The translations under genes and the position numbers were made by a program. The notes under the pieces are model-generated. The model was not told where the DNA came from, made no database searches, and saw only the letters and a program-made list of their open reading frames with translations. This document shows, in pieces, positions 11,451-32,000 of a stretch of DNA of 32,000 nt. Positions within the stretch are counted from its first letter, which is position 1. Every line of letters starts with the position of its first letter. Source of the stretch: Synechococcus sp. A15-28. GTDB lineage: Bacteria > Cyanobacteriota > Cyanobacteriia > PCC-6307 > Cyanobiaceae. Where the stretch lies: contig NZ_CP047931.1 in assembly GCF_014280175.1 (NCBI RefSeq), forward strand, positions 180,001 through 212,000, read 5' to 3'.

Positions 11451-12386
11451 ATGGGCGGCGAGCAGCTCTGGGTCGTGGCCGCTTGTCTGAACGAAGAAGC
11501 GGTGATCCTCCGTTTTGTCGAACGGGTGCTTGCCCTTCCCGAGGTGGACCGTCTTCTCCTGATCGATGACGGATCCTCTGACGGAACGGTGGCGGTGATT
11601 CGCTCCTGGCAGCAGCGCCACCCCGATCAGGGCCTGACACTGCTGGAGCTCACCCGCAATTTCGGCAAAGAAGCCGCCATGTTGGCGGGTCTTGATTTTG
11701 CCGATGGACGTTGCGGAGCAGCTGTGTTGATCGACTCCGATCTCCAACATCCCCCAGAACGCATTCCGGCGATGGTGAAGGCCTGGCGGGAGGGTGCCGA
11801 GGTGGTGACGGCGGTTCGCGATGACCGCGATGCTGAGGGATTGATGAAGGTCGCCACCGCTTCGTGGTTTTACCGGGTGTTCAACCGCCTGGTGGATTCG
11901 ATCCAGTTGCAGGAAGGTGCCGGCGACTTTCGCCTGCTCAGTGCCCCAGTGATCAAGGCCGTCACGCAAATGCGCGAGGCCACGCGTTTCTCCAAAGGGT
12001 TGATGCCTTGGACGGGCTATCGCAGTGTCGAAATCCCTTACAGCCGCGTGGCACGGATCGGAGGTGCAACCTCCTGGAGTCCGCTCAAACTCTGGCGTTA
12101 CGCCATGGATGGGATCTTTTCATTCAGCGTGAAACCTCTGAAGGTTTGGGGCGTGATCGGAATGCTGATCTCCCTGGTGAGCTTCCTGTATGCCGCATTG
12201 ATTGTGCTGCGCACGTTGATCTTCGGGGTGGATCTGCCCGGTTATGCCTCCCTGATCGTGGCGGTGCTGTTTCTTGGTGGAATTCAGCTGATTGGCATCG
12301 GTGTGCTGGGCGAATACATCGGCAGGATTTACATCGACGTCAAGCGGCGGCCCCATTACTTCATCCGTGCGGTACACGAGCCTTGA
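11451..12386 (+). CDS. Family-2 glycosyltransferase of the polyprenyl-phosphate sugar synthase type (GtrB / ArnC / DPM1-like)
   Basis: VVAACLNEE, LLLIDDGSSDGT, the VLIDSDLQHPPE (DxD) motif and GDFRLLS. Two C-terminal TM helices end in GVLGEYIGRIYIDVKRRPHY, the signature tail of GtrB/ArnC-type enzymes. Confidence 0.85.
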   Translation: MGGEQLWVVAACLNEEAVILRFVERVLALPEVDRLLLIDDGSSDGTVAVIRSWQQRHPDQGLTLLELTRNFGKEAAMLAGLDFADGRCGAAVLIDSDLQHPPERIPAMVKAWREGAEVVTAVRDDRDAEGLMKVATASWFYRVFNRLVDSIQLQEGAGDFRLLSAPVIKAVTQMREATRFSKGLMPWTGYRSVEIPYSRVARIGGATSWSPLKLWRYAMDGIFSFSVKPLKVWGVIGMLISLVSFLYAALIVLRTLIFGVDLPGYASLIVAVLFLGGIQLIGIGVLGEYIGRIYIDVKRRPHYFIRAVHEP

Positions 12387-14882: not shown

Positions 14883-15596
14883 ATGTCCGTCGCTCTGGCT
14901 GCCCAGCTCCGGGAAGGCACCAAGAAATCCCACACGATGGCCGAGAACACCGGCTTCGTGAGTTGCTTCCTCAAAGGCGTTGTGGACAAGGCCAGCTACC
15001 GCAAGCTGGTGGCTGATCTTTACTTCGTTTACACCGCGATGGAAGAGGAGATCGCCAAGCTGGGCGATCATCCCGTGGTCGGTCCTGTGGGGATGCAGGA
15101 GCTCAACCGTCGTGAAGCTCTGGAACAGGATCTCGCCTACTACTTCGGTGCCGGCTGGAAAGAACAAATCCAGCCGTCTCCCTCAGCTGCGGCCTATGTG
15201 GAGCGGATTCATGCCGTTGCACAGGAATCGCCTGAACTGTTGGTGGGGCATCACTACACCCGCTACCTCGGCGATCTCTCCGGCGGACAGATCCTGAAGA
15301 ACATCGCCCAGAAAGCGATGAATATGGATGGCGACGACGGTCTTCACTTCTACGTCTTCAACGACATTGCCGACGAAAAGGCTTTCAAGACCGCCTACCG
15401 CTCCACGATGGATGAGCTGCCCATCGATCAGGCCATGGCTGATCGGATTGTGGAGGAAGCCAACCATGCCTTCCACCTGAACATGAACATGTTCAAGGAA
15501 CTCGAAGGCAATCTGGTGGCTGCCATCGGCAAGGTTCTGTTCGGCTTCCTGACCCGTCGCCAGCGCGCCGGCAGTACGGAGGCTGCGGCAGCCTGA
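14883..15596 (+). CDS. ho1: Heme oxygenase (biliverdin-producing; phycobilin pathway)
   Basis: 237 aa. LREGTKKSHTMAENTGFV contains the proximal His region. YTRYLGDLSGGQILKKI-type motif is present as HYTRYLGDLSGGQILKNI. These are classic HO-1 family signatures. Confidence 0.95.
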   Translation: MSVALAAQLREGTKKSHTMAENTGFVSCFLKGVVDKASYRKLVADLYFVYTAMEEEIAKLGDHPVVGPVGMQELNRREALEQDLAYYFGAGWKEQIQPSPSAAAYVERIHAVAQESPELLVGHHYTRYLGDLSGGQILKNIAQKAMNMDGDDGLHFYVFNDIADEKAFKTAYRSTMDELPIDQAMADRIVEEANHAFHLNMNMFKELEGNLVAAIGKVLFGFLTRRQRAGSTEAAAA

Positions 15597-15600
15597 TTCC

Positions 15601-16638
15601 GTGCCCACCACGCTCATCCGCCTCCTGGTGCCGGGCACCAGCCAACGCTTCCGCTGTGGTGGTTTGAGTGTGGAGCTGCAAACGGCTCGGCTGCTGTCGA
15701 GCCTTTGTTCAGTGGAGGTAGTGACCCACCGCGAGCGGCATCAAGACCATCCATTTCTGCAGGATCTGCTCCGCGAGGAGCCCCCTCGGCAGGACATCCT
15801 CTGGATTGTCAGCTGGGGGTTTGACGTGCCGGCACTTGTGCAGCGTTTGCGCGGCCATCGCATTGCTTATCACGCCCATAGCAGTGGCTACGGCTTCACA
15901 CTTCCGCCTGGTGTGCCTGTGCTGGCGGTGAGTCGCAACACCCTTGGGTACTGGGGGGATCGTTGCCCCCGCAATCCATTGCTGCTGGTGCCCAATGCCA
16001 TCGAGCCCTGTTGGTTGGATCGAGGCTGCAGAGGCAGCGCCGAGCGCCGCCCCATCGACGTCCTCGTTCAAGCTCGCAAGAGCAGTCGTTATGTGCTGGA
16101 TCAGCTGGTGCCCGCCCTGCGGCAGCGGAGTCTCCGGGTGGAGGTGCAAAGCGGCTGGGTTGATGATCTCGTCGATCTGTTCAACCGCTCCAGCGTTTAC
16201 CTCTACGACTCAGCGGAGTACTGGCGTGGTCGCGGTGTGACGGAGGGATTTGGTCTGCCGCCGCTTGAGGCCATGGCCTGCGGTTGCGTGGTGTTCAGCA
16301 GCCTGAATCATGCGCTGGCCGATCACGGTGACCCGGGTCGGATGGTCCATCAGATCGGGTGTGGGCGCTTGGCCTTTGACGTGCGTCGGGTCGAGAATGC
16401 CGTCCGTGATCCAGCTGCGTGGAGACCACCAGCTGCTGCACTGAATGCATTGCTGGACGGAAGCTCAGAGGCGTCTCTTCTGCAGCGCTGGAAGCTGGCA
16501 TTGAATCAGTTGGATGCCCTGAATGACGCCGAAGGTCCCCTGCTCAGCAGCCCACCCACCTGGCAACTGAAGCTGCATCAACGCGTGGCAAGGCTGCGTC
16601 GAGTGGTCGATCGGTTGCCCGGCTGGCCGAAGGGATAA
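15601..16638 (+). CDS. Glycosyltransferase, GT-B fold, GT4-like
   Basis: EX7E motif EGFGLPPLEAMACG, with N-terminal IRLLVPG...GG. The only available start is GTG 15601, 4 nt after the ho1 stop. Confidence 0.75.
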   Translation: MPTTLIRLLVPGTSQRFRCGGLSVELQTARLLSSLCSVEVVTHRERHQDHPFLQDLLREEPPRQDILWIVSWGFDVPALVQRLRGHRIAYHAHSSGYGFTLPPGVPVLAVSRNTLGYWGDRCPRNPLLLVPNAIEPCWLDRGCRGSAERRPIDVLVQARKSSRYVLDQLVPALRQRSLRVEVQSGWVDDLVDLFNRSSVYLYDSAEYWRGRGVTEGFGLPPLEAMACGCVVFSSLNHALADHGDPGRMVHQIGCGRLAFDVRRVENAVRDPAAWRPPAAALNALLDGSSEASLLQRWKLALNQLDALNDAEGPLLSSPPTWQLKLHQRVARLRRVVDRLPGWPKG

Positions 16639-16725
16639 AACCATCACCCGCCCCCCCGACTTATGTTTATTTAAATACTGTCGGAACTTGATTCGGATGA
16701 AAGTTCTGGCCATTGAGAGACGTTG

Positions 16726-18537
16726 ATGCAGAGCACAACCCTCAGTGATCTTTCGGTTCTGTTGAATCATTTGCCACGGCGGCGTCTGCGGTTGCTGGGG
16801 GTGGTTCTAGTGGCGTCTTTCCTTCAAGGCTTGCTCGATATGTTGTTGGTGGGTCTGATGGCTCGCATGGTTGGCTTGCTTGCGGGCGTGAAGCTGCAGG
16901 ATCAGATCCCGGGGGTTCGCGTGTTTGGTGGGTCGCTATTGGATCAAGCGGGCTGGCTGATTGGTCTGCTGATCGCCGCATTTTGGTTCACCTCCATCAT
17001 TCGTTTCGCTGTGTCGCTGATGCAGAGCATGCTCAGCGCTGAAATCTGGAACGATTTGGTGAACAGGGTGTATGCCAACTTGATGCTGCAACGCTATGCC
17101 TTTTTTACCGAAAATCGAACAGCAAATCTCTCGGAAAGTTTTAACCGAGTTTTGAATCGCATTTCGACGGCAGTGATCAGTCCTCTGATCACCATCGCTG
17201 GCAATTTATTGTCAGTTGTTGTTTTGCTTGTAGGCATCAACATCATTCTTGGCTGGAAAGCCCTGTTGATGTTCACCTTGATGTTGATGGCTTATGTATT
17301 GTCGTCCCGTTTGGTCACCCCTTATTTGCGTTTGGGAACCAAGCAGAGGGTTCGCTACACAAGACGAATTAACATGATTCTGATGGAATCCCTTCGCTCG
17401 ATGCGGGATGTCCAACTTTATTCAGCAGATCAATATTTCACATCTCGTTTTTCCCGCGATGGGGTGATCGCAAAGCGGTACGACCGTCTGACACGACTGC
17501 TTACTGATGTTCCGCGCTATGTGATCGAACCCGTTGCGGTCACCGTTCTCTTCGCCATTGGTGTGGGGCCTTCACTGATCGCTGGGGATATGGAAAGTGT
17601 TCGCGAGAGCTTGCCATTGATTTCAGTGATTCTTGTGACGCTGCTGCGGATTTCTGGTCCGCTTCAGTCCATGTTCCGCAGCGTGAACAAGTTGCGTGGT
17701 GGCTTGCCGGAGATCAAGGATGCTCTCGATCTGCTTCAGCTGAAGCCACAGCGTCTCACCTTGCAAAGCCCGGGTGTTCCATCTCCTAGTGGAGTTTTCC
17801 CCCGTCGTCTGATTCAGCTTGACAACGTCAGTTTCACCTACGCCGGCCGTGATCAGCCTGTGCTTGAGGGGATCAATCTTTCGATTGCTATTGGTTCGCG
17901 GATTGCGCTGGTGGGCCGCACGGGCAGTGGCAAAACAACCTTGGCCCACATCATCCTTGGTCTCTACACCCCAAGTTCTGGGGAGCTTTGCCTCGACGGG
18001 ATTCCCCTTACTGCAGAGGAGATGCCCGCATGGCAGGCCAATTGTGCCTTAGTTCCACAAGATATCCGTTTATTGGATACCAGTGTTCGCGAAAATATCG
18101 CCTTCGGTCAGTCCGCTGACGAAATTGATGATGACGAGGTTTGGAATGCACTTGCTGCGGCTCAATTTGATGACGTTGTGAGCCAGATGCCCTATGGGCT
18201 CTACACGATGATTGGTGAGAATGGTGTGAAGTTGTCAGGAGGACAGCGTCAACGTCTCTCCTTGGCTCGTGCTTTTTATCGGAAGGCAAGCGTCTTGATT
18301 TTGGATGAGGCGACAAGCGCGTTAGACAACAAAACGGAGTATGAGGTAATGCAGGCCCTCGATATCATTGGCCGCCGTTGCACCACGATCGTGATTGCCC
18401 ATCGGTTGTCGACGGTTCGTAAATGTGATCAGGTGTTTGAAGTAAGTCATGGACGCATAAAGGCATCCGGGAGTTTTGAAGATCTCGTCAAAACTTCAGA
18501 CAGTTTCCGTGAGATGAATCGATTGGAATCAACCTGA
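16726..18537 (+). CDS. Fused TMD-NBD ABC exporter (type I exporter half-transporter, MsbA/PglK-like)
   Basis: Six-helix N-terminal domain, then Walker A GRTGSGKTT, signature LSGGQRQRLSLARA, Walker B VLILDEATSALD and H-loop IAHRL. There is no N-terminal C39 peptidase domain. The track starts at TTG 16723; ATG 16726 is the next codon. Confidence 0.9.
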   Translation: MQSTTLSDLSVLLNHLPRRRLRLLGVVLVASFLQGLLDMLLVGLMARMVGLLAGVKLQDQIPGVRVFGGSLLDQAGWLIGLLIAAFWFTSIIRFAVSLMQSMLSAEIWNDLVNRVYANLMLQRYAFFTENRTANLSESFNRVLNRISTAVISPLITIAGNLLSVVVLLVGINIILGWKALLMFTLMLMAYVLSSRLVTPYLRLGTKQRVRYTRRINMILMESLRSMRDVQLYSADQYFTSRFSRDGVIAKRYDRLTRLLTDVPRYVIEPVAVTVLFAIGVGPSLIAGDMESVRESLPLISVILVTLLRISGPLQSMFRSVNKLRGGLPEIKDALDLLQLKPQRLTLQSPGVPSPSGVFPRRLIQLDNVSFTYAGRDQPVLEGINLSIAIGSRIALVGRTGSGKTTLAHIILGLYTPSSGELCLDGIPLTAEEMPAWQANCALVPQDIRLLDTSVRENIAFGQSADEIDDDEVWNALAAAQFDDVVSQMPYGLYTMIGENGVKLSGGQRQRLSLARAFYRKASVLILDEATSALDNKTEYEVMQALDIIGRRCTTIVIAHRLSTVRKCDQVFEVSHGRIKASGSFEDLVKTSDSFREMNRLEST

Positions 18538-18543
18538 TCACCG

Positions 18544-20799
18544 ATGGCTGATTTCGTTGTTTTGGCAACGGCGGATTGGGACCACCGCCTGTGGACGAAC
18601 AAGCAGCACACCGCGCTTTCCCTGCACCGGGCTGGCCACCGCGTGCTGTACGTCGAGTCTCTTGGGTTGCGTCCCCCACGTGCTGATCGTCAGGACCGGC
18701 AGCGAATCGTCAAGCGTCTTAGGCGGATGTTCAACCCGCCGCGCCAGGTTGAGCCAGGCTTGTGGATCTGGTCACCGATGGTGATTCCCGGTGGGACACG
18801 CGGGATGTTGATGCGGATCAACCGGATGCTGCTCAGCGGCTCTCTGGCCTGGGTTCTCCGGCGTCTGCGTTTTCGCTCTCCACTGTTGTGGACTTACAAC
18901 CCGCTGACCGGTCGTTATCTCAACCTCAAACGACGTGCTGCAGCCTCAACGTCGTCCATGTTTTCCGCTGCCGTTTACCACTGCGTCGATCGCATCCATG
19001 CCCAGCCAGGCATGCCCGCGACCTTAATTGCTGACAGCGAGCGCCAGCTGTGTCGCACGGTGAACGTGGTGTTCACCACGTCTCCTGATCTTCAGGCGTC
19101 GTTGATGCGCCTGAATGCCAGCACTTACCACTACGGCAACGTTGCCGATCAGGCCCATTTCGCTGCCGCCCTGCATGCGCCCCGTGCCCCGGAGCCTCTG
19201 GCTGGCATCCCAAAGCCTCGCCTGATGTTTGTCGGCGCGATCGATTCCTACAAGCTTGATCTGCCCATGCTGGCGGCCCTGGCCCGTCAACGTTCGGAGT
19301 GGTCGTTCGTCATGCTGGGCCCTGTTGGCGAGGCGGATCCGGACACAAGCATTACGGCCCTCCAGGCCTTGCCAAATGTGCACGTCATGGGGCTGCAGCC
19401 CTATGACGATTTGCCGGCATGGCTCGCTCACGCCGATGTGGCTCTGCTGCCGCTGCAGGAGAACACCTACACGCAGCACATGTTCCCGATGAAATTCTTC
19501 GAATATCTGGCAGCGGGGCGACCTGTGGTTGCCACCCGAATTCCGGCGTTGCGCCCCTACGCCTCTGGAGCGTTGCTTTGCCCTCCGGATGCGGAGGCGT
19601 TCGATGCCGCTATCGCAATGGCATTGGAGGGTGATGGCCCACCTCTCCATCAGCGCTTGGCGTTGGCCGCTGAACACACTTACGAGAGCCGTACCCGCAA
19701 GATGCTGGCGGATCTGCAGCGGGAGGGATTGTTGGATGCGGCCTCAAGTGGTCGGTCGATGCTGCGGCCCCAAGCCCGGACCTGGCCGTTGCAGCGGCTG
19801 TTGATGCCGGCCCTGTTCCGCTCCGTGCGGTTGCGCAACCTTTGTGGGCGCTGCGAGGCCGGCCGGAAATTATTGGGCTGGATTGATGGGCAACATCCGG
19901 TTGAGCCGAGGGTGCTTGATGCACAGATTCCCCGCCTTATTCAGAAAGGAATGTATGCCGAGGCTTTAGTCCTGATGGAGCGGTCCTGGTTGGAGCTTGG
20001 TCGCAACAATCATTTGAGCCATTTGCTGTTTCGACGTGGTGCCAGGCCCAAGGCGCTGGAGGAGCAGATCGCTTTGTTTGAGACCCTGGGTTCCAGCACC
20101 CGCCTGCCCCTCAGCTACCGCGCCTACTGCAGGGTCGTTTGTGCTTACCGCGCTGCTGAAGCCAACGACCCCGAGCTGATGCGTGCTTCGCTCGCAGCGT
20201 TGGACGCAGTGGCAACAGGTCTGGAAAAAGATCCCAACACACCTTTGTGTCGCCAGGGGAATCGCTTCAACCGCGCCAAGCTGCTGATCTCCTGTTACGC
20301 CACCTCGCTGCGGCTTCATCTCACCCTGGCGGATCGCTCTGGTGCCGCTCGCCTTGGGCGGCGTGCGCTGCAGTTCTGTGCACGCCTCGATCTCAGCATG
20401 ATCGAAACCGATACCTCCTTCCGGCTCACACGGAATCTGATGCGCGTGCTGGCGATCAATGCTGTTGAGGCCTGGGCTTCAGCGGATGTCGCGCTCTACT
20501 GGCAGGCGAGGCAGGCGTTGCAAGCCGTTCATGACCATGCCCATCGACCGGAGCATGATGATCGCGAGGTGCAGGAAGACCACCGTGGCTTCGCCGTACA
20601 GGTGATGGAGCGTGTCGTCTTGATTGACCCCGCCCTCGCTGAAGTGGCCGTAAGGCTCAGGGCCACCGAAGATTTGATGCTCTTGCTGTTCCGCGCCAAG
20701 ATCGTCAACGATGCTTGGGGTGCCGAGCGGTTGCCGGGAGTTTTGCCTTGTTTTGAGGGCTTTCTTAAGCCTCACCCTGCAACGTCGAGCACGTCATGA
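18544..20799 (+). CDS. Two-part protein: N-terminal TuaH-like GT-B glycosyltransferase (about 400 aa) plus a C-terminal helical domain of about 330 aa with unknown function
   Basis: N-terminal FVVLATADWDHRLWTNKQH; later FVGAIDSYKLDL...LPNVHVMG...MFPMKFFEYLAAGRPVVAT. From about residue 420 the sequence is Leu/Ala/Arg-rich with no motif I recognise. ATG start is 6 nt after the ABC stop. Confidence 0.8.
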   Translation: MADFVVLATADWDHRLWTNKQHTALSLHRAGHRVLYVESLGLRPPRADRQDRQRIVKRLRRMFNPPRQVEPGLWIWSPMVIPGGTRGMLMRINRMLLSGSLAWVLRRLRFRSPLLWTYNPLTGRYLNLKRRAAASTSSMFSAAVYHCVDRIHAQPGMPATLIADSERQLCRTVNVVFTTSPDLQASLMRLNASTYHYGNVADQAHFAAALHAPRAPEPLAGIPKPRLMFVGAIDSYKLDLPMLAALARQRSEWSFVMLGPVGEADPDTSITALQALPNVHVMGLQPYDDLPAWLAHADVALLPLQENTYTQHMFPMKFFEYLAAGRPVVATRIPALRPYASGALLCPPDAEAFDAAIAMALEGDGPPLHQRLALAAEHTYESRTRKMLADLQREGLLDAASSGRSMLRPQARTWPLQRLLMPALFRSVRLRNLCGRCEAGRKLLGWIDGQHPVEPRVLDAQIPRLIQKGMYAEALVLMERSWLELGRNNHLSHLLFRRGARPKALEEQIALFETLGSSTRLPLSYRAYCRVVCAYRAAEANDPELMRASLAALDAVATGLEKDPNTPLCRQGNRFNRAKLLISCYATSLRLHLTLADRSGAARLGRRALQFCARLDLSMIETDTSFRLTRNLMRVLAINAVEAWASADVALYWQARQALQAVHDHAHRPEHDDREVQEDHRGFAVQVMERVVLIDPALAEVAVRLRATEDLMLLLFRAKIVNDAWGAERLPGVLPCFEGFLKPHPATSSTS

Positions 20800-21950
20800 C
20801 CCGCAGGGTCGTGCTCTATATCGATTCCCTCAAGACCGGTGGAGCCGAGCGCGTCACTCTTTTGCTTGCACGCTGGCTTGTGGAAACGGGCTGGCAGGCC
20901 ACGGTGCTCACCCGCCATGGTGCGTCCCGTGATTTTTATCCCGTCCCAGCAGGTGTTCAACGGGCTCTCGAACCCGCAGATCCGATTTGGTTAAGACGCT
21001 TCGGGCCGTTGGGTTTTCCCCTTCGCATCCTGCGGTTGCGCGCATGGTTGCGGCGCCATCAACCTGATCTGGTTCTTGGCATGACAACCCTGCCGGCGAT
21101 CAAGCTGCTGCTGGCGGTGCGGGGCCTGGCTTGTCCAGCCATCGTCTCGGAACGGAACTTCCCTCCTTTGAAGCGGCCGAGTTGGCCTTGGCGGTTGCTG
21201 CGGCGGCTCACTTACCCATGGGCCCAGCTGCATCTTGTCCAAACCGAGGCCACGGGGCACTGGCTGGCCCAGCATTTGAGGGCGCGCCCCCAACTCTGTC
21301 TGCCCAACCCCGTGGCCTGGCCTTTGCCCCGGTTTGCGCCTGACCCCGACCCCATCGCTTGGCTGGTCCGCCGGAATGTCGGGGCTGACCAGCAGGTGCT
21401 CCTGGCTGTGGGAACCAAATCCCATCAAAAGGGCTTTGACCGCTTGGTCGCGATGTTCGGCCTGTTGGTGCAGCGGCATCCCGCCGTGCATCTGGTGATC
21501 CTTGGCCTCGATCAGGAGCTCTATCACGGTGTTGACCAACAGGCTCAGTTGCGCCGATTGCTGCCGCAGGCATCCCACCGCTTGCACTTCCCCGGGCGGG
21601 TGGGAAATGTTCAGGATTGGTACGAGCGGGCCGATATGTTCCTGCTCCCTTCTCGCTATGAGGGTTTTCCCAACGTGCTGCTCGAAGCCATGGCCAGCGG
21701 CTGTTGTTGCGTCTCTTCCGACTGCCCCCAGGGCCCAGCCGAGTTGATCCGTGATGGCGTTGATGGTCGTTTGTTGGCGAACGGTGCCACCCCGGAGACC
21801 TGGGCTGAGCTGGTGTCGGAGCTGCTGGAGGACTCAGGCCAACGCCTGCGATTTGGAGATGCGGCTCTGGAGGTGCGTCAACGCTTTTCCGAGGAACGCT
21901 TGCGCCGTTGTTTCATGCACGGCGTGGCGCAGCTGGTGGGTGATGACTGA
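20796..21950 (+). CDS. GT4-family glycosyltransferase
   Basis: VVLYIDSLKTGGAERV at the N-terminus and EX7E motif YEGFPNVLLEAMASG. The ATG overlaps the upstream stop (ATGA at 20796-20799). Confidence 0.85.
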   Translation: MTRRVVLYIDSLKTGGAERVTLLLARWLVETGWQATVLTRHGASRDFYPVPAGVQRALEPADPIWLRRFGPLGFPLRILRLRAWLRRHQPDLVLGMTTLPAIKLLLAVRGLACPAIVSERNFPPLKRPSWPWRLLRRLTYPWAQLHLVQTEATGHWLAQHLRARPQLCLPNPVAWPLPRFAPDPDPIAWLVRRNVGADQQVLLAVGTKSHQKGFDRLVAMFGLLVQRHPAVHLVILGLDQELYHGVDQQAQLRRLLPQASHRLHFPGRVGNVQDWYERADMFLLPSRYEGFPNVLLEAMASGCCCVSSDCPQGPAELIRDGVDGRLLANGATPETWAELVSELLEDSGQRLRFGDAALEVRQRFSEERLRRCFMHGVAQLVGDD

Positions 21951-23202
21951 ATCAGTGTCGACTGCAGGCCGTGATGATCTGTGGCTCGTGTTGCCCCATC
22001 TCGGAGCGGGGGGCGCTCAGAAAGTGGCCTTGATTGCTGCCCGTCATTTTGCGGCGCAGGGCTTGAAGGTGAAGCTGGTGACGCTGATCCCGGGGCATCC
22101 TGTGGCCCATGCCCTCCCCGACGGGATTCCTTGGCTCGAACTGGGGGCGTCGACCCATCGCTCCTGGGGGGCCCGCGGCGGTCGTTTCGCCCTGGCGCAG
22201 CTTGACAAGCTGATCCGCTTGTTCTTTCAGCTGCAGTTGCGCTGGTTAGAGGGTTGGTTTCAAACCTGCGTCCATCCCGAGAGGCGGGGTTTGGCCATGC
22301 GGCTCTTTCATGTCGGCACCGAGGCGATGGCTGGCTTGCGTTTGCGCCAGTTGCGCCGGGAGTTCCGCCGTCAGCGGCCCCATCGGGTTTTGGCTCTGCT
22401 GACCCGCACCAACATCACCTGTTGTTGTGCTGCCTGGGATTTGCCGATCCACCTTGTTGTGTCGGAGCGCAACGACCCCTCGCTTCAGCTGCTGCCGGAG
22501 GTGTGGCAGCGCCTGCGGCCGCTTGCCTATCGCCGGGCCGATGTGGTGACCGCCAACACAGCCGGCGTTCTCTCGGCTTTGGACTCCATGGGGGCGTGGG
22601 AGCGGTTGGCCCTTCTGCCCAATCCGTTGCCCGGTGCCTCCAAGGCTGCGGCTCGCGGAGATCAATCGTGGGCCTCTGGCTTCATCAGTGTTGCCAGGTT
22701 GGTGCCCCAGAAAGGCCTTGATGTCTTGGTCGCTGCTCTGCCGAGGTTGAGCGGATCAGCAGCTGGATGGCCCGTCAACCTGGTGGGTGATGGGCCCGAG
22801 CGTGAGGCGTTGCAGCAACAGGCCAAGGATCTGGGGGTCTCCAGTCGGCTGCGCTTCCTGGGCTTTCGCTCGGATCCAGATCGGTTCCTGGCAGAGGCTG
22901 CCGTGTTTGTGCTCCCCTCCCGTTTTGAAGGCATGCCCAATGCTCTGCTGGAGGCCATGGCTGCCGGTCTGGCCGTGATCGTGACGGACGCATCTCCTGG
23001 CCCTCTGGAGGTGGTTGAGCCCGGGATCAGTGGATTGGTCGTTCCTAGTGATGATCCGGCCGCTCTAGCGGAAGCCATGCAGGCGCTGGTCTCGGATCCA
23101 GACCGCTGCCGTCGGATGGGGGCAGCGGCCAAGGCGCGAATTGCTGCGTTGGATTGGCCCCGGTTGGAACCGCTCTGGCGGTCGATCCTGGCGTTGTCAT
23201 GA
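21943..23202 (+). CDS. GT4-family glycosyltransferase
   Basis: LWLVLPHLGAGGAQKV at the N-terminus and EX7E motif FEGMPNALLEAMAAG. The track ORF starts at 21751 inside the previous gene. The in-frame ATG at 21943 overlaps the upstream gene by 8 nt and gives a normal GT4 N-terminus. Confidence 0.85.
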   Translation: MTESVSTAGRDDLWLVLPHLGAGGAQKVALIAARHFAAQGLKVKLVTLIPGHPVAHALPDGIPWLELGASTHRSWGARGGRFALAQLDKLIRLFFQLQLRWLEGWFQTCVHPERRGLAMRLFHVGTEAMAGLRLRQLRREFRRQRPHRVLALLTRTNITCCCAAWDLPIHLVVSERNDPSLQLLPEVWQRLRPLAYRRADVVTANTAGVLSALDSMGAWERLALLPNPLPGASKAAARGDQSWASGFISVARLVPQKGLDVLVAALPRLSGSAAGWPVNLVGDGPEREALQQQAKDLGVSSRLRFLGFRSDPDRFLAEAAVFVLPSRFEGMPNALLEAMAAGLAVIVTDASPGPLEVVEPGISGLVVPSDDPAALAEAMQALVSDPDRCRRMGAAAKARIAALDWPRLEPLWRSILALS

Positions 23203-24323
23203 CCGCTCGTGTCCTTGTATTGGCCCCGACCCGGCGGGCGCGGACGGAAACCTTTGTGCGCGCCAATCTGGCCCGCTTGCCCTTTGCGGTGGAGGCCTGT
23301 TTCGGGGATGAGATGCCTTGGCGCGAGCCCCTCAAAGCGCTCTATGGCTTGGCGGTGCTCACCAGCAAGGTCTGCACCCGCTTGGGCTGGCTCCGGCTGG
23401 CCACGCTGCCCACTTCAATCGTGGCCATGCTTTTGGTGAAACGCCACCGGCCGGATGTGGTGATGGTGGAGTTCGGTTTTCATGCCGTAAGGGTGATGGA
23501 GCTGGCTCGTCTTGGAGTTCCCCTGGCAGTTCACTTCCGCGGCGCCGATGCCTCAGCGGAGCGTTACCTGAAGCGCCTCGAGCAGCGCTACCGCCGTTTG
23601 TTTCAGCTCACCTCGGCTGTGATCGTCAAAAACCAAACGATGCGGAGCCGATTGATCTCCCTCGGAGCCCAGCCGGCACAGCTCGTGATCAGTCCATCCG
23701 GTGCCGATGAGCAGCGGTTTCAGGGGTCCATTCCCGCATCCATGCCTCCGCGGTTTCTGGCGGTGGGCCGCTTTGTGGCCAAAAAAGGTCCGCTGGACAC
23801 CCTGGAGGCTTTTGCTCTCTTGCAAGGCCTTACGGATCATGCTGATGCCTGCAGCCTGGTGATGGTGGGTGATGGCCCTCTCCTTTCCGTCGTGCAGGAA
23901 AGGGCTCATCAGCTGGGACTTGAGCATCTTGTTCAGTTCCCAGGTGTTCTTTCTCCGGATGCAGTGGTGCAGGAGATGAGGCGTGCACGGGTGTTTGTGC
24001 AGCATTCCCGCACAGCGGAAGATGGCGATGAGGAGGGATGCCCGGTCTCCGTGATGGAAGCTCAGCTTTGTGGTCTGCCCGTTGTGGCGACCCGTCATGG
24101 CGGGATTACTGAAGTGGTTGTGGATCAACAGACCGGAACGCTGGTGGAGGAAGGCGACCGTCGGGGGATGGCGGAGGCCATGGCCTTGCTGGCTGATCGT
24201 CCCGAACTTGCCGCTGCTTGGGGGGCTGCCGGTCAACGTCGGAGCCAGGCACGATTCACCGTGAAGCACCACGTGGATCAGATCACAATGCTGCTCAACG
24301 ATCTGGTGGACCACAGACGATGA
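23199..24323 (+). CDS. GT4-family glycosyltransferase
   Basis: EX7E motif EEGCPVSVMEAQLCGLPVVATRHGG. The in-frame ATG at 23199 overlaps the upstream stop (ATGA at 23199-23202). Confidence 0.85.
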   Translation: MTARVLVLAPTRRARTETFVRANLARLPFAVEACFGDEMPWREPLKALYGLAVLTSKVCTRLGWLRLATLPTSIVAMLLVKRHRPDVVMVEFGFHAVRVMELARLGVPLAVHFRGADASAERYLKRLEQRYRRLFQLTSAVIVKNQTMRSRLISLGAQPAQLVISPSGADEQRFQGSIPASMPPRFLAVGRFVAKKGPLDTLEAFALLQGLTDHADACSLVMVGDGPLLSVVQERAHQLGLEHLVQFPGVLSPDAVVQEMRRARVFVQHSRTAEDGDEEGCPVSVMEAQLCGLPVVATRHGGITEVVVDQQTGTLVEEGDRRGMAEAMALLADRPELAAAWGAAGQRRSQARFTVKHHVDQITMLLNDLVDHRR

Positions 24324-25174
24324 GCAGCCAACGCCTGAAGTTGCTGCTGATCCGTGGTCTCGGCCACAGCGGCACAACGATGCTGGATCTGGCTCTTGGG
24401 GCGCATCCGCAAATCATTGGCCTGGGTGAGGCGGCGCGAATTCTGGCGATGCCACAACCGGGGGACGAGCATCGCGGGCCCAGTCAACTTCGTGGTGCCC
24501 ACCGGTTTGAGCGGCGTTGCACCTGTGGGGTCGTTGCAGCGGAGTGCCCAATCTGGGGCCCTCAGCTTGAGTGGCTTCGCCTGCACGACCAAAGGCCGAT
24601 GCAGGAGAAAGTGCTGCGGCTGCTAAAGCGTTCCCCCCACGACGGCGGGGCCGTCTGGCATGTGGATTCGTACCAGGACGATCTGGAGATGACGCGGTTT
24701 CCCGAGACGATGTTTGACATCCGGATCATCCATCTCGTGCGCGATGTGCGCTCCTGGGTGCATTCCCGCGCCAGGGCCGGCCGCAAGTCCGGCCTCCGCT
24801 GGCCTGCCATGCGTCAGCTGGCGCGTTGGTGGCGTGTCAATGCCAAGTTCGAACGGTCTTTCCGGCAGTCTCCTTACCCGGTGTTTCATCTGGGTTATGA
24901 GGAATTTGCGCTTCAACCCCAGCGCAGTTTGGAGTTGCTCTCCACCTGGCTGTCCATCGATTTTCAGGATTCGATGCTGGCTCCCGGCCAGAACAGCAGC
25001 AGCCACATCCTTGCGGGCAATCGGGTGCGTTTTGATCTGGAGCGCAGTCGAAGAATTGCCTACGACGGCGCCTGGTTGGGTGTGCCGGCACCCACGGCTG
25101 CGCATCTCGGCTTGCTTTTGCCCAACGTGGCTCGCATGAACCGCCGCTTGGTGTATTCCAACGGTTTGCTTTAA
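24320..25174 (+). CDS. PAPS-dependent sulfotransferase, here called type A
   Basis: P-loop-like 5'-phosphosulfate-binding motif LLLIRGLGHSGTTMLDL and 3'-phosphate-binding-type motif IIHLVRDVRSWVHS. The in-frame ATG at 24320 overlaps the upstream stop (ATGA at 24320-24323). Confidence 0.8.
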   Translation: MSSQRLKLLLIRGLGHSGTTMLDLALGAHPQIIGLGEAARILAMPQPGDEHRGPSQLRGAHRFERRCTCGVVAAECPIWGPQLEWLRLHDQRPMQEKVLRLLKRSPHDGGAVWHVDSYQDDLEMTRFPETMFDIRIIHLVRDVRSWVHSRARAGRKSGLRWPAMRQLARWWRVNAKFERSFRQSPYPVFHLGYEEFALQPQRSLELLSTWLSIDFQDSMLAPGQNSSSHILAGNRVRFDLERSRRIAYDGAWLGVPAPTAAHLGLLLPNVARMNRRLVYSNGLL

Positions 25175-25196
25175 CGGGCTGCTCCGGTGGGTCGCC

Positions 25197-26027
25197 TCAG
25201 GCGTCTCCCCAGGTCATCGCGGTGCCCCAGTGCTGCTCAACACCGAGATCCGGACACCGTTCCTGGACCGCTTTCACCAACGGGGTGAAGTGCTGGCCAA
25301 GACGCCGCAACACCTCCGTTGGAACAGCGGTGGTGGCCTGACTGGCATTCACCCTGTGGCTCAGTTCAGGGATCTGCTCTGGGATGCACAGGCAACGGCA
25401 CAAGGCACAGTGATTCGCTGCCGTAAACAAGGTTTCGTAGAGGCCGATGAACACGTCGGAGGCTGCAAGACCTGTCCGGAGTGCATCGAGGGTCGCGGGG
25501 TAATCGCTTCGGGGAGATTCACGTTTGAGCAGCTTGAGGCTGGCCTTGCTCAGATGTTCGATTTCATGCTCGGGCTGGAGCAGGCCACGCTTGCGCAGTT
25601 GCATGCGTTGCTGCGACAGGAACCGTTCCACCGGGTCGCGCATGATGAACACTGCTCGCATCTGCACGCCACGTTCCTGGAAGGCGTCTTTGATGCGCCT
25701 GAAGCTTTGCGCGCTTAACCCGGCATAGGACGGGGTGATGTCCCCCGTGAGTCGGATATGGGGTGGCTTGAGCCGTGATGCGAAGTAGTCGAAGTAGCGC
25801 TCGGGTTGTTCCATGAACCGCGCCCGCCGCCAAGTGCGCCACTTCAATGGTGTGGGGTTCTTGGGCCGGAAGGAGGAACAGTGTTCCAGCTCCAGAGCAT
25901 CGAAAACGTGGTACTCCTTTAAGAAGCCGAAATCAGCATCCTTCCTGCGGTTCAGTTGATCGTGCAGCCAGGAGGTTCCTGCTTTCTGGGCGCCAACGCC
26001 GAGCAGAAAGGTTGCGTCAGAGGCCAA
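25197..26027 (-). CDS. PAPS-dependent sulfotransferase, here called type B
   Basis: 5'-PSB motif GVGAQKAGTSWLHDQL and 3'-PB motif VFIMRDPVERFLSQ. The only start upstream of the PSB motif is TTG at 26027. It lies 24 nt downstream of kdsA and in the same frame. Confidence 0.8.
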   Translation of the reverse strand: MASDATFLLGVGAQKAGTSWLHDQLNRRKDADFGFLKEYHVFDALELEHCSSFRPKNPTPLKWRTWRRARFMEQPERYFDYFASRLKPPHIRLTGDITPSYAGLSAQSFRRIKDAFQERGVQMRAVFIMRDPVERFLSQQRMQLRKRGLLQPEHEIEHLSKASLKLLKRESPRSDYPATLDALRTGLAASDVFIGLYETLFTAANHCALCRCLCIPEQIPELSHRVNASQATTAVPTEVLRRLGQHFTPLVKAVQERCPDLGVEQHWGTAMTWGDA

Positions 26028-26051
26028 GAGGTTTTGCCGAGAAAAACTGCA

Positions 26052-29359
<3,308 letters not shown>

Positions 29360-29367
<8 letters not shown>

Positions 29368-29730
29368 GCCAGGACTGCTGTTGATTCGGGGCCTCGGTCA
29401 CAGCGGCAGCACCATCCTTGATCTGGCGTTGGGGGCCCATCCCCAGGTGGTGGGCCTAGGTGAGGTGGCGCATCAATCGCCGCTGGGAGCAACGCTCGAA
29501 CCATTTCGGCTGTGCGTTGTTCCGGCTTGGCTACGAGGAGTTGGCCCTGGCTCCTGAGCAAATCCTGAGGCAGCTCTGCTCATGGCTTGAGGTTGATTTC
29601 GATCAGACGATGCTGCAGCCGGGCTGAACTCCAGCAGCCACATCGTCAGTTGACCCCCTCCGTGGCCCAACCGAACCGTCGCCTGGTGTACGGCAATGGG
29701 TTGCTTGGTGACACGTGGCCCTGCGTCTAG
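29360..29730 (+). pseudogene. Decayed paralogue of the type-A sulfotransferase (24320-25174)
   Basis: MAEPGLLLIRGLGHSGSTILDLALGAHPQVVGLGE (from ATG 29360) matches MSSQRLKLLLIRGLGHSGTTMLDLALGAHPQIIGLGE. Homology then resumes in other frames. INRRWEQRSNHFGCALFRLGYEELALAPEQILRQLCSWLEVDFDQTMLQPG-stop (29472-29627) matches ...VNAKFERSFRQSPYPVFHLGYEEFALQPQRSLELLSTWLSIDFQDSMLAPGQ. NSSSHIVS-stop (29627-29653) matches NSSSHILAG. VAQPNRRLVYGNGLL (29662-29706) matches VARMNRRLVYSNGLL-stop. About 145 central codons, including the IIHLVRD motif, are missing. Confidence 0.85.
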
Positions 29731-30466
29731 CCTCCACACCAATCACCTAACGCACGTGTCGACCGTTCCTGCGCCGATTCCGATTTTCATCGGCTACGAC
29801 CCAAGGGAACGGGCCGCCACCAATGTGCTCATCGACAGCTTGTATCAGCACAGCAGTGTGCCGCTGGCGATCACTCCGCTGGTTACACCTCAGTTGGAAG
29901 CACAGGGTCTTTACCAGCGTGAGCGGGATCCAAAGCAGAGCACCGCGTTTTCCTTCACCCGCTTTCTCGTGCCCCATCTGATGGGATACCAGGGCTGGGC
30001 CCTGTTCATGGACTGCGACATGCTCTGTCGGGGGGACATCAAGCAGCTTTGGGACCAGCGGGACGATGCCTATGGCGCCATGTGTGTGCAGCACGAGCAT
30101 GTGCCGGGTGAGACGGTGAAGTTCCTGGGTGAGGTGCAGAGCGCCTACCCCAAGAAGAACTGGAGTTCGCTGATGCTGCTCAACTGCAGCCGCTGCTCAA
30201 AGCTCACTGTTGATTACGTCAACAGCGCCAGTGGTCTGGAACTGCATCGTTTCCACTGGCTGGAGGGTGACCACGAGATCGGTGCCATCCAGGGCGGTTG
30301 GAATCATCTGGTGGATGTGCAGGCACCACCGGAGCCTCTGGATGCGTCGCCGATGCTGCACTGGACTCTTGGGGGGCCCTGGTTCCGGGAACAGCGCACG
30401 ATGGGTGGACCGTTGGCGGCGGAGTGGTTCAGCGCCCGCGATGACGCAATGAAACTCTGGGACTGA
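29696..30466 (+). CDS. Nucleotide-diphospho-sugar (GT-A fold, GT8-like) glycosyltransferase
   Basis: IPIFIGYDPRE at the N-terminus, TRFLVPHL, and DxD-type motif ALFMDCDMLCRGDIKQLW, resembling LPS-core GT8 enzymes. The start is uncertain: ATG 29696 lies inside the sulfotransferase relic, and the in-frame GTG 29756 is an alternative. Confidence 0.65.
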   Translation: MGCLVTRGPASSLHTNHLTHVSTVPAPIPIFIGYDPRERAATNVLIDSLYQHSSVPLAITPLVTPQLEAQGLYQRERDPKQSTAFSFTRFLVPHLMGYQGWALFMDCDMLCRGDIKQLWDQRDDAYGAMCVQHEHVPGETVKFLGEVQSAYPKKNWSSLMLLNCSRCSKLTVDYVNSASGLELHRFHWLEGDHEIGAIQGGWNHLVDVQAPPEPLDASPMLHWTLGGPWFREQRTMGGPLAAEWFSARDDAMKLWD

Positions 30467-31245
30467 TGGCGATTCAACATGCGGTGGTGGCGGTTCCGGC
30501 CCGTTTGCAGTCCTCCCGGCTGCCGAACAAGGTGCTGGCGGATATCGGTGGCAAGCCGATGATCCAGAGGGTGCTCGAGCGGTGTCGTGAAGCGACCGCA
30601 GTGCAGGCGGTGGTGCTCTGCACCGACAGCACGGAGCTGCAGGAGATGGCGGAAGGCTGGGGCTTCCCGGTGCTGATGACCGCCGCTTCCTGCAGTTCCG
30701 GCAGTGAGCGCATCGCGTCGGTGGCTCAGGAGCTGATGGCGCTGGCCTGGGGGGAGAGCCCGGCAGTGGCCGAGCAGACCGCCGTGATCAACGTGCAGGG
30801 AGATCAGCCATTCATCGATCCATCGGTCATCGACGCGATGGTGGCCGAGTTCAAGCGGCTGGATCCCGTTCCAGCGGTAGTGACGCCGGTGTATCGCTTG
30901 AAACCGGAGACGGTTCACAATCCCAATGTGGTGAAGACCCTGTTGGCCCATGACGGGCGGGCTCTTTACTTCTCCCGGTCTGCCATTCCCCACGTGCGTG
31001 ATGTCGATCCTGCGGATTGGCACCGCCACACCAACTACTGGGGGCATGTGGGGATGTACGGCTTCCTGGGGGATGTGCTGGCGGCGTGGGATCAGCTGCC
31101 CCCTTCACCCCTGGAGGATCTGGAGCGGCTGGAGCAGTTGCGCCTGATCGAGGCTGGTCACACCATCGCCACCTTCCCCGTGGCTGGAACCTCTCTGTCG
31201 GTGGATACGGCGGAGCAGTTGGAACAGGCGCGCTCCATGGTCTGA
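30466..31245 (+). CDS. kdsB: 3-deoxy-manno-octulosonate cytidylyltransferase (CMP-Kdo synthetase)
   Basis: Colinear with E. coli KdsB from memory: VPARLQSSRLPNKVLADIGGKPMIQRVLERC, SGSERI, INVQGDQPFIDP, NPNVVKTLL, ALYFSRSAIP, PSPLEDLERLEQLRLIEAG. The ATG overlaps the upstream stop by 1 nt (TGATG at 30464-30468). Confidence 0.95.
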   Translation: MAIQHAVVAVPARLQSSRLPNKVLADIGGKPMIQRVLERCREATAVQAVVLCTDSTELQEMAEGWGFPVLMTAASCSSGSERIASVAQELMALAWGESPAVAEQTAVINVQGDQPFIDPSVIDAMVAEFKRLDPVPAVVTPVYRLKPETVHNPNVVKTLLAHDGRALYFSRSAIPHVRDVDPADWHRHTNYWGHVGMYGFLGDVLAAWDQLPPSPLEDLERLEQLRLIEAGHTIATFPVAGTSLSVDTAEQLEQARSMV

Positions 31246-31253
31246 GTCCTGAC

Positions 31254-32000
31254 TCAGTTCTCCCGGCACCAACGGCTGGCAGTGGGCCAGAGCTGATGCA
31301 GGTCAAGTTCAGGGAAATGTTGCTGCACCGCCGCCAGGGTCGGGGCCTGCCATCGCCCCAACTGGTGGAGAAGCTCCTCCGGCAGCTCCGTGTCGTTGCG
31401 GCTCACGTTCACCTGTTGATCCCATTGCGGTTCTCTGTACGGAACACCGAGGAACCGGCAGAGATCAGCCCAGCAGTCCCGATGAAACAGCTGCTCGTAG
31501 GTGGCGATGAAGCAGTGCTTCAGGCCGAAGCTCTCCTTAAGAGCCGTGAGGGTGTGGCCGTAGTCGCTGCGCAACGTGATCCGTTCGGGACGCTCGCGGC
31601 AGAGGTCCTGCAGGGTCTGGATTTCTCCCGCACTGTCCTGAAGCCCCTGCTTGCGCCGCTTCATGCGCACACTTGACACGATGCGTTCGATCGGGTCTCG
31701 CATCAGGAACACCGGTCGCAGCGGAATGCCATGGGCATGCAAGCCATGGTCAATGGCACGCAGGGTGGCGGCGCTGAGCCCGCAGTAGGAGGGCGTGATG
31801 TCCCCGGTGAGCTGGATGCCTGGTCGCCGCAGCAGGCTCGCGAAGTAGGCGTAGTAGCGCTCCGGTCGGTCCAGAAAACGCTGGCGACGCCAGGTGCGGG
31901 GCTTCAACAACGAGCGGCGGCTCCGGCCGCTGAAGCCTGCGGCCGGCAGGGTGAGCGCGTCATGAATGTGGTACTCCTTCAGGAAGCCGAAATCAGCGTC
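31254..32000 (-). CDS. PAPS-dependent sulfotransferase, type B paralogue; N-terminus lies beyond the right edge
   Basis: The frame is open to position 32000. My own translation of the last bases gives DADFGFLKEYHIHDAL..., matching KDADFGFLKEYHVFDAL of the 25197-26027 protein. The rest is colinear with that protein (TGDITPSYCGLSA vs TGDITPSYAGLSA; VFLMRDPIERIVS vs VFIMRDPVERFLS). The track start at 31910 is an internal alternative codon. Confidence 0.8.
   Translation of the reverse strand, partial: DADFGFLKEYHIHDALTLPAAGFSGRSRRSLLKPRTWRRQRFLDRPERYYAYFASLLRRPGIQLTGDITPSYCGLSAATLRAIDHGLHAHGIPLRPVFLMRDPIERIVSSVRMKRRKQGLQDSAGEIQTLQDLCRERPERITLRSDYGHTLTALKESFGLKHCFIATYEQLFHRDCWADLCRFLGVPYREPQWDQQVNVSRNDTELPEELLHQLGRWQAPTLAAVQQHFPELDLHQLWPTASRWCREN

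Follow-up and report, generated by a model that had tools for sequence, protein, structure and literature searches.

A sulfotransferase-rich locus linked to Kdo genes points to an undescribed sulfated cell-surface glycolipid in marine Synechococcus

Introduction

Marine Synechococcus are among the most abundant phototrophs, and the glycans at their surface determine how phages adsorb, how grazers recognise the cells and what the chemistry of the organic matter that they release is. Two features of their envelope are puzzling. The kdsABCD genes for Kdo (3-deoxy-D-manno-octulosonate) are conserved in the lineage, yet the sole structural study is summarised in reviews as describing a Kdo-free lipopolysaccharide (LPS); and strains carry about a dozen sulfotransferase genes. 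The two puzzles are joined in the region considered here, which is the 15.6-32 kb part of a 32,000-nucleotide stretch of the Synechococcus sp. A15-28 genome (contig NZ_CP047931.1, positions 180,001 to 212,000; the whole stretch is referred to as the window). In this region, sulfotransferase genes lie within Kdo operons and within a glycosyltransferase (GT) operon that also bears an exporter gene. The question is what such a locus makes, and the answer to which it points is an undescribed sulfated cell-surface glycolipid.

The open reading frame (ORF) calls of the region were annotated with Pfam and NCBIfam, and all of the genes that an initial annotation of the DNA had placed between 15601 and 32000 were recovered at their coordinates. 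The same annotation held that, to its knowledge, the product of this gene combination was undescribed, a view that stands in part: literature searches aimed at the locus gave no paper describing it or any kds-sulfotransferase operon, but the sulfotransferase richness of marine Synechococcus (12 genes in WH8102) and the occurrence of sulfotransferases in cyanobacterial glycan clusters had been noted earlier (Maeda 2021). Sulfated glycans of marine bacteria that are exported by ATP-binding cassette (ABC) transporters are also already known (Vibrio sp. KMM 8419), and a literature search on the supply of 3'-phosphoadenosine 5'-phosphosulfate (PAPS) gave nothing specific to marine Synechococcus.

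Results

Sulfotransferase genes in the Kdo and glycosyltransferase operons

The two genes claimed for the supply of cytidine monophosphate (CMP)-Kdo both pass NCBIfam cut-offs. The Kdo-8-phosphate synthase gene kdsA (26052..26975, minus strand, with a likely start near 26906) encodes a protein that matches Pfam DAHP_synth_1 and NCBIfam PRK12457 (510.6 bits against a cut-off of 457), and the product of kdsB, the CMP-Kdo synthetase gene (30466..31245, plus strand), matches Pfam CTP_transf_3 and two NCBIfam models (317.8 bits against 193, and 190.4 against 155.2 for TIGR00466). KdsC and KdsD are encoded beyond the window and are present in relatives, whose loci are given below by number (L001 and so on).

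Two paralogous sulfotransferase genes, here called ST_B1 (25197..26027, minus strand) and ST_B2 (31254 to beyond 32000, minus strand), adjoin these genes. kdsA is followed downstream, after 24 nt, by ST_B1 in the same orientation, and this adjacency recurs in L001, L004, L005, L085 and L091. Orthologues of ST_B2 are convergent with kdsB, as at the right end of the window, and they follow kdsD-kdsC with overlapping codons in WH7803, L088, L089, L090 and L091. Because the kdsA-ST_B1 adjacency and the kdsD-kdsC-ST_B2 overlaps recur, both paralogues belong to kds operons, an arrangement that marine Synechococcus share with two contigs that bear a Prochlorococcus label. With the ST_B genes inside the kds operons, the tie to Kdo is closer than was visible to the initial annotation. 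The two contigs (L089 and L090) are metagenome-assembled genomes (MAGs) that carry kdsD, kdsC, two ST_B genes, kdsB and a GT8 gene; their guanine-plus-cytosine (GC) content of 0.57-0.58 is more Synechococcus-like, and the Prochlorococcus label may be wrong.

A sulfotransferase gene of another type, ST_A (24320..25174, plus strand), is the last gene of the glycosyltransferase operon. Its start overlaps the stop of the last GT4 gene, GT4_c, by 4 nt (ATGA), and the same junction is present in KORDI-52, WH7803 and L084. Overlaps of 4 nt also join GT751 to GT4_a and GT4_b to GT4_c, and GT4_a and GT4_b overlap by 8 nt; since the plus-strand genes from GT751 to ST_A are all joined in this way, ST_A is translationally coupled to GT4_c. 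The sulfotransferase genes are clustered here beyond chance, because only ~0.08 would be expected per 16 kb, as estimated from the 12 sulfotransferase genes of WH8102 and a genome size that we take to be ~2.4 Mb.

The KdsA protein of the window is 74-77% identical to its homologues in Halieaceae and other marine Gammaproteobacteria and 70-71% identical to those of Prochlorococcus, and this greater nearness to marine proteobacteria suggests lateral transfer of kdsA between them and picocyanobacteria. KdsB is ~40% identical to proteobacterial KdsB, and the KdsA of cyanophage S-SCSM2R is only 42% identical to that of the window. No homologue of ST_B was found in the phage collection.

Two types of PAPS sulfotransferase

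ST_A and the ST_B proteins have no BLASTP similarity to each other, in line with the earlier claim of two unrelated sequence types, and PAPS-binding motifs are kept in both; the loss of these residues, by which the proposal of the initial annotation would have been refuted, is seen in neither type. ST_A is a Sulfotransfer_3-type enzyme (Pfam PF13469, 46.8 bits against a cut-off of 27) that aligns with the human tyrosylprotein sulfotransferases TPST1/2 in the PDB at both motifs, namely GHSGTT in the 5'-phosphosulfate-binding (PSB) loop and RDVRSWVHS in the 3'-phosphate-binding (PB) region. In this alignment, GLGHSGTTML of ST_A corresponds to GVPRSGTTLM of TPST2, and VRDVRSWVHS to VRDGRASVHS.

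ST_B1 matches no Pfam or NCBIfam model, the Pfam sulfotransferase gathering scores included, and ST_B2 reaches only 16.4 bits for PF00685, which is under the cut-off of 22. The assignment of this type comes from motifs and from the predicted fold. ST_B1 carries GAQKAGTSWL and RDPVERFLS, and in an alignment of 20 family members the PSB lysine (K15) is nearly invariant and the PB arginine and serine (R130 and S138, in RDPxERxxS) are invariant. The AlphaFold2 (AF2) model of ST_B1 has a pLDDT (predicted local distance difference test) score of 84, and its top Foldseek matches are the bacterial sulfotransferase 3rnl (E 9.5e-6) and the heparan-sulfate 3-O-sulfotransferase 3-OST-3 (template-modelling score, TMq, 0.56-0.58); the sulfotransferase domains of CurM and olefin synthase match as well. 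According to this model, ST_B1 has the sulfotransferase fold. A profile of the family gave weak sulfotransferase matches only in the PDB, and single-sequence PDB searches gave no matches for ST_B1, the GT8-like protein or GT_345.

The ST_B family is large, with 5943 representative clusters by profile search, 691 of them at E <= 1e-30. Sulfotransferase is also the annotation of its members in Rhodobacteraceae, Paracoccus and Burkholderiales. The Roseovarius member passes Pfam models, and among the more distant members P0243 and P0245 pass the Pfam sulfotransferase cut-offs. P0245 is a fusion of a sulfotransferase with a CysQ-type domain (phosphatase of 3'-phosphoadenosine 5'-phosphate, PAP), and this gives indirect support to the predicted use of PAPS. 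Other relatives include a 1340-aa protein that combines a sulfotransferase, a coiled coil and a GT4 domain, and a Paracoccus protein (L087) from a cluster with two sulfotransferases, a GT4 enzyme and an ABC2-type exporter. The Roseovarius member sits outside any glycan context.

The initial annotation counted three apparently intact sulfotransferases and a decayed fourth. ST_A, ST_B1 and the decayed copy are as described, but ST_B2 is only partly in the window. It is 45% identical to ST_B1, and its frame is open to base 32000, so that RDPIERIVSS is present and the first ~33 residues, with the PSB loop, lie beyond the end. A metagenomic protein that is 98% identical to ST_B2 (P0398, 281 aa) supplies the missing part and carries GLGAQKAGTSWL, and by this comparison ST_B2 is presumably intact. 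The decayed copy, ST_A2 (29375..29706, plus strand), is a paralogue of ST_A that survives as tblastn fragments in three frames, matching ST_A residues 8-40, 167-223 and 266-284; residues ~41-166, which include the 3'-PB region, are deleted. An intact 293-aa Sulfotransfer_3 orthologue of ST_A2 occurs at the same uvrD/GT8 junction in L091, and the fragments are 75-79% identical to it.

Glycosyltransferases and a single exporter

All six of the claimed glycosyltransferases were found. Four of them, GT_345 (15601..16638), GT4_a (20796..21950), GT4_b (21943..23202) and GT4_c (23199..24323), all on the plus strand, are GT4-type proteins that match Glycos_transf_1 or Glyco_trans_1_4 above the gathering score and have, by reading of the sequences, the EX7E motif. 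Matches are strong for GT4_a (Glyco_transf_4 and Glycos_transf_1, E 1e-31), GT4_b (Glycos_transf_1, E 5e-39) and GT4_c (Glycos_transf_1, E 2e-33, with a WcaL-like NCBIfam match below the cut-off). GT_345, a soluble GT-B enzyme encoded by the first gene of the operon, is only marginal (28.6 bits against 26.4 for Glycos_transf_1; 29.1 bits for Glyco_trans_1_4) and has no NCBIfam match, and it is 72% identical to its counterpart at the same position in KORDI-52.

The fifth, GT751 (18544..20799, plus strand; 751 aa), is a TuaH/WcaI-like GT-B protein in its N half only, where Pfam matches are confined to residues 225-388 and the NCBIfam TuaH match (86 bits) is below the cut-off. The C half (~19741-20799) has no family match and no predicted transmembrane (TM) segment, and by eye only it is helix-rich. 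The protein is split into genes of 395 and 390 aa in KORDI-52 and is fused in WH7803 and L084. The sixth is a GT8-like GT-A enzyme (29696..30466, plus strand, with a probable true start ~20 codons in) that has a DCD motif and a marginal Glyco_transf_8 score (25.2 bits against a cut-off of 24.3). Its AF2 model is weak (pLDDT 54), and the top Foldseek matches, all GT8, are weak corroboration. Its stop codon overlaps the start of kdsB by 1 nt, and the gene is 74-91% identical across all Synechococcus and Prochlorococcus loci, where it lies beside kdsB wherever kdsB is in range and always adjoins a kds gene. No glycosyltransferase or sulfotransferase has a multi-span topology; GT4_a and GT4_c have one hydrophobic stretch each.

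The candidate flippase is encoded by the second gene of the operon (16723..18537, plus strand), a half-transporter with a transmembrane domain (Pfam ABC_membrane) fused to a nucleotide-binding domain (Pfam ABC_tran) and six predicted TM segments. The initial annotation called it MsbA/PglK-type, and this part of the claim holds for the architecture, which is common to many other exporters, but every curated family cut-off is missed, also by the best NCBIfam matches: MsbA (301 bits against 602 for TIGR02203 and 251 against 867 for NF008381), HepA (272 against 725) and PglK (234 against 1000). In the PDB, MsbA is the best half-transporter match (E 1e-60). The ABC gene is also set apart by a low GC content, 0.51 in the window and 0.46-0.52 across Synechococcus copies (0.44-0.57 at third codon positions, GC3; orthologues in L001, L005, L008, L084 and L085), compared with 0.60-0.64 for its neighbours (GC3 0.66-0.80). 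We considered whether this reflects a recent transfer into the A15-28 strain and rejected the idea, since all orthologues are low in GC.

This protein had also been named as the only export candidate, which is correct for the window and holds for the window only. Wzx, Wzy, Wzz and Wzm/Wzt are indeed lacking in scans limited to the large ORFs of the window, and the same scans gave no outer membrane polysaccharide export (OPX) protein and no priming transferase. Matches to ABC2_membrane and Capsule_synth, which would mark a Group 2 capsule or Wzm/Wzt system, were absent from the window ORFs scanned, as was the xss-type set of Wzx, Wzy, polysaccharide co-polymerase (PCP) and priming transferase. 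The called genes of L001, L084 and L085 likewise include no priming phosphoglycosyltransferase, Wzx, Wzy, Wzm/Wzt or OPX.

Conserved order and an exchanged 5' cassette

Proteins of the window are 80-98% identical to those of marine Synechococcus such as KORDI-52 and WH7803. The order of the genes in KORDI-52 is ho1, GT, ABC, GT with a separate 390-aa protein, three GT4 genes, ST_A, ST_B, kdsA, uvrD, GT8, kdsB, kdsC and kdsD. The order is held in the MAG L005, in WH7803 (L007) with rearrangement, and in the metagenome contigs L084 and L085, whose ST_B proteins are only 55-58% identical to that of the window. A Prochlorococcus locus (L013) keeps the ABC gene, a GT751N-like GT, uvrD, kdsA, GT8, kdsC and kdsD, and has no sulfotransferase. 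The initial annotation had asked whether the region behaves as an island, an idea that we reject, given that the same order is kept across clades in at least 10 loci and that the window holds no tRNA gene or mobile-element repeat. The GC content is 0.60-0.64 throughout except in the ABC gene (~0.62 for the window).

Identities along the operon are discordant. Compared with KORDI-52 and L005, the window genes are 72% (GT_345), 66% (ABC), 48% (GT751 N half), 30-33% (GT751 C half) and 52% (GT4_a) identical at the 5' side, and 80-92% identical for GT4_b, GT4_c, ST_A, ST_B1 and KdsA; against KORDI-52 itself, the values are only 52% for GT4_a, 85% for GT4_b and 90% for GT4_c. The same break, from 30-72% for the 5' genes to 80-92% for the 3' genes, is seen against KORDI-52 and CUG2137, and the ABC proteins of KORDI-52 and L005 are 92% identical to each other, a value that also holds between KORDI-52 and CUG2137. 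From this discordance, and not from the GC content of the ABC gene, we conclude that the 5' cassette (GT_345, ABC, GT751 and GT4_a), exporter included, has been exchanged as a unit. The cassette is strain-variable and the 3' part (GT4_b, GT4_c, ST_A, ST_B and kds) is conserved. The sulfotransferase complement is variable between strains as well: KORDI-52 has a Sulfotransfer_2 gene instead of ST_A2, and L089 has its two ST_B genes between kdsC and kdsB.

A gene for a WaaL-like (Wzy_C) protein occurs at the locus in two relatives. In WH7803 (L007 2023-5726) it is followed by kdsD, kdsC and ST_B, with overlapping stop and start codons, and then by a GT87-like membrane protein; in Prochlorococcus L013 (13337-14602) it lies between two GT2 genes and uvrD. 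In most relatives, kdsA is also adjoined by genes for proteins of 540-620 aa (L001 7255-9063, L007 10849-14316, L005, L008, L084 and L091, with two copies in WH7803 and L008), which are not present in the window. These proteins have ~6-10 predicted TM segments and no Pfam or PDB match, and could be GT-C-like periplasmic transferases.

Neighbouring genes

A PcrA/UvrD helicase gene (26974..29367, plus strand; Pfam UvrD-helicase and UvrD_C, NCBIfam PcrA 898 bits) interrupts the region mid-way. It is 94-96% identical in Synechococcus relatives and is a housekeeping gene outside the glycan pathway. On the left, a heme oxygenase gene of the pigment pathway (14883-15601) ends 4 nt before GT_345, an adjacency kept in KORDI-52 and L084, and its co-transcription with the glycan operon is putative. 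A promoter and terminator scan gave results at chance level. Farther to the left, at 11451-13548, a gene for a PgfS/ArnC-like GT2 (250 bits, below the cut-off) adjoins one for a GtrA-YdjC fusion protein. The pair looks like a set of polyprenyl-phosphate-sugar synthase, deacetylase and flippase for periplasmic modification of a glycan or lipid A and recalls LgmA/C of Bordetella, and it may be a leftward extension of the envelope locus. The genes upstream of 11 kb are those of ordinary metabolism.

Discussion

A pathway for a sulfated glycolipid

We favour the reading that the locus does in marine picocyanobacteria what a waa-type LPS core locus does elsewhere, with sulfation added, and that its product is a lipid-anchored glycan that receives its sulfate in the cytoplasm before the ABC protein flips it; we give this reading an even chance of being right. 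Soluble cytoplasmic glycosyltransferases (five GT-B and one GT8) would extend a lipid-anchored oligosaccharide on the cytoplasmic side of the inner membrane. Its anchor would most likely be lipid A, rather than undecaprenyl diphosphate, because GT4 and GT8 enzymes, Kdo supply, a ligase in relatives and MsbA as best half-transporter match occur together. The product would also contain a Kdo residue, for which KdsA and KdsB, together with the KdsC and KdsD encoded a little past the window end, would provide CMP-Kdo, and ST_A and the ST_B paralogues would add sulfate esters from cytoplasmic PAPS before export. The fused ABC half-transporter would then flip the finished sulfated glycolipid, and the surface molecule would be completed by a ligase of the WaaL type and by the Lpt pathway, whose genes lie elsewhere. 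That sulfation precedes export had been proposed at the outset and is reasonable, because six TM segments are predicted for the ABC protein and none of the glycosyltransferases or sulfotransferases is a multi-span protein. The analysis establishes the identities of the genes, the motifs and fold of the sulfotransferases, the operon junctions, the conserved gene order and the mosaic of identities; the lipid anchor, the joining of Kdo and sulfate in a single molecule, and what the ABC protein transports are points that we infer.

Several observations weigh against this reading. The window contains no signature of a GT30-, GT99- or GT107-type Kdo transferase in Pfam or NCBIfam, the sole trace of WaaA/KdtA (GT30) being an 18-bit, sub-threshold Glycos_transf_N match on GT4_c; with these signatures absent, we did not adopt the GT8-like protein, GT_345 or GT4_c as a Kdo transferase. 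A comparative study reports that cyanobacteria carry only lpxA, lpxC, lpxD and lpxB and no Kdo transferase gene. As reviews of Snyder 2009 present it, the LPS of WH8102 and CC9311 has no Kdo, heptose or phosphate, and a core mainly of alpha-1,4-linked (4-linked) glucose. The ABC protein is below every curated cut-off and varies together with the glycosyltransferases beside it, as a generic lipid A flippase would not be expected to do; the lpx genes and the PAPS-supply genes are both outside the window; the closest solved relatives of ST_A sulfate protein tyrosine and not sugars; and sulfate on a Synechococcus envelope glycan is a prediction from genes. The Kdo-containing product of the initial annotation has support from kdsA, kdsB and the ST_B genes in kds operons, but no Kdo transferase is recognisable in the window and the LPS of the reviews is Kdo-free. 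A preprint treats kdsABCD as LPS-core genes that were lost by most Prochlorococcus. The Kdo may therefore end up in another glycoconjugate, or else the published analyses overlooked a species that bears Kdo and is charged and sulfated.

Alternative readings

The glycan might instead be an O-chain or capsule-like polymer built on undecaprenyl diphosphate, primed elsewhere, finished in the cytoplasm, flipped in the manner of PglK/Wzk and ligated by WaaL to the lipid A-core. The joint swapping of the ABC, GT751 and GT4_a genes between close strains is what serotype loci show, and the WaaL-like genes of WH7803 and L013, the appearance of PglK among the NCBIfam matches (234 bits) and a Bac_transf priming enzyme ~8 kb away in L013 all fit. 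The PglK cut-off of 1000 bits is nevertheless far off, a priming transferase is absent from the window and from the called genes of L001, L084 and L085, and the lineage-wide conservation of GT4_b, GT4_c, ST_A and the kds genes is core-like more than O-antigen-like, so we consider such a polymer, the main alternative, somewhat unlikely. Another way to accommodate the reported Kdo-free composition, which is known from the reviews, is to treat the Kdo genes and the operon ending in ST_A as mere neighbours, with the GT4 and GT8 enzymes building the core without Kdo and rich in glucose, whether sulfated or unsulfated, and a separate minor product made by way of the kds and ST_B genes. GT4 and GT8 are retaining families in CAZy, which fits alpha-glucosyl linkages, the unrelated uvrD and heme oxygenase genes are interleaved in the region, and other genes separate the kds genes from the glycosyltransferase operon in WH7803 and L008. 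Simple neighbourhood accounts poorly, however, for ST_A and ST_B1, which lie directly side by side and converge in the window as in L001, L005, L084 and L085, for a GT8 gene that keeps its place between or next to kds genes in all loci (74-91% identity), and for a block order kept across proteins that are only 51-59% identical; we regard it as improbable.

The substrate of the sulfotransferases could also be no glycan at all but, for instance, protein or peptide tyrosine (as for TPST or RaxST), a lipid or a small metabolite, with their place in the locus due to chance or co-regulation. The tyrosylprotein sulfotransferases that are the best solved relatives of ST_A would suit this, as would the CurM and olefin-synthase domains that match ST_B1 and the Roseovarius relative without a glycan context. 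Set against these are the translational coupling of ST_A to GT4_c in several clades, the coupling of ST_B to kds genes, the ST_B-GT4 fusion and the Paracoccus relative in a GT4 and ABC2 cluster, and the bacterial and carbohydrate sulfotransferases that make up the high-TM-score matches of ST_B1. Non-glycan substrates seem to us highly improbable.

A bolder proposal extends the favoured reading of a sulfated, lipid A-anchored core. The ST_B enzymes may be Kdo-directed sulfotransferases that act on Kdo itself or on the adjacent residue, so that in these phosphorus-sparing cells, whose envelope is phosphate-free, the negative charge of the inner core would come from sulfate and not from phosphate. 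Sulfation of Kdo or the next residue would explain why ST_B is kept in the kdsA and kdsD-kdsC operons, and a labile, highly charged sulfated Kdo-glycolipid could have escaped the extraction or analysis that, as reviewed, reported a Kdo-free LPS. We think this assignment of ST_B doubtful, yet because of the tight coupling to kds genes, sulfated Kdo or a Kdo-proximal sulfate is a live reading.

With the locus in hand, it becomes directly testable what Kdo and the sulfotransferases do in Synechococcus. These cells are known to substitute sulfur for phosphorus in their sulfolipids, and if a sulfated Kdo-bearing glycolipid exists, it would extend this substitution to the outer membrane. Diversity like that of serotypes, with a bearing on phage host range, is suggested by the exchange of the 5' cassette and by the strain-to-strain differences in sulfotransferase genes.

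Comparison with known systems

At the level of single enzymes, ST_B resembles the heparan-sulfate 3-O-sulfotransferase and 3rnl in its predicted fold and in the PSB lysine and the PB arginine and serine, and differs in that sequence identity is only 15-16%. In export, the nearest parallel is Wzk of Helicobacter and PglK of Campylobacter, in which one fused ABC half-transporter flips a glycan completed in the cytoplasm, before WaaL or an oligosaccharyltransferase takes over. The single fused half-transporter is shared, and PglK is among the NCBIfam matches, but the PglK score (234 bits) is far below its cut-off (1000 bits) and the locus has no priming transferase; we know of no sulfation in Wzk/PglK systems.

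Sulfated bacterial glycans offer three further comparisons. The rhizobial enzymes LpsS (for LPS) and KpsS (for K-antigen) are also of the PAPS type and act, in Gram-negative cells, on LPS or on a capsule rich in Kdo; compared by description only, they are single modifiers outside GT/kds operons, unlike the three or four paralogues here. The xss (synechan) cluster of Synechocystis likewise serves glycan synthesis in a cyanobacterium and encodes eight glycosyltransferases along with two sulfotransferases, each from a different subfamily, but it is plasmid-borne, uses Wzx, Wzy, PCP, OPX and a priming transferase, makes a free exopolysaccharide, and has no kds genes or fused ABC exporter. The capsule cluster of Vibrio sp. 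KMM 8419, from another marine Gram-negative, combines glycosyltransferases, an ABC transporter and sulfotransferases, and its sulfated polysaccharide is chemically proven. That cluster is strain-specific and carries the PAPS genes cysNDC, whereas the locus described here, which is kept throughout the lineage, contains kds genes and shows no PAPS genes within the window.

The closest overall counterpart is the waa (rfa) core locus with MsbA in Enterobacteria and Pseudomonas. A waa-type core locus consists of GT4/GT8 enzymes, Kdo supply and a ligase, as in E. coli and Pseudomonas. The Synechococcus locus, too, encodes soluble glycosyltransferases of these two families, enzymes for Kdo supply and a half-transporter of the fused ABC kind whose best half-transporter match is MsbA; relatives have a WaaL-type ligase nearby, and assembly at the cytoplasmic face followed by flipping would be shared as well. 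It differs in having no WaaA (GT30), heptosyltransferases or core kinases, and in an ABC protein that is under the MsbA cut-off (301 against 602 bits) and is encoded inside the glycosyltransferase operon. Kdo itself, according to the reviewed analyses, is reportedly absent from Synechococcus LPS. The remaining difference is that the Synechococcus locus has sulfotransferases where enteric loci have phosphotransferases.

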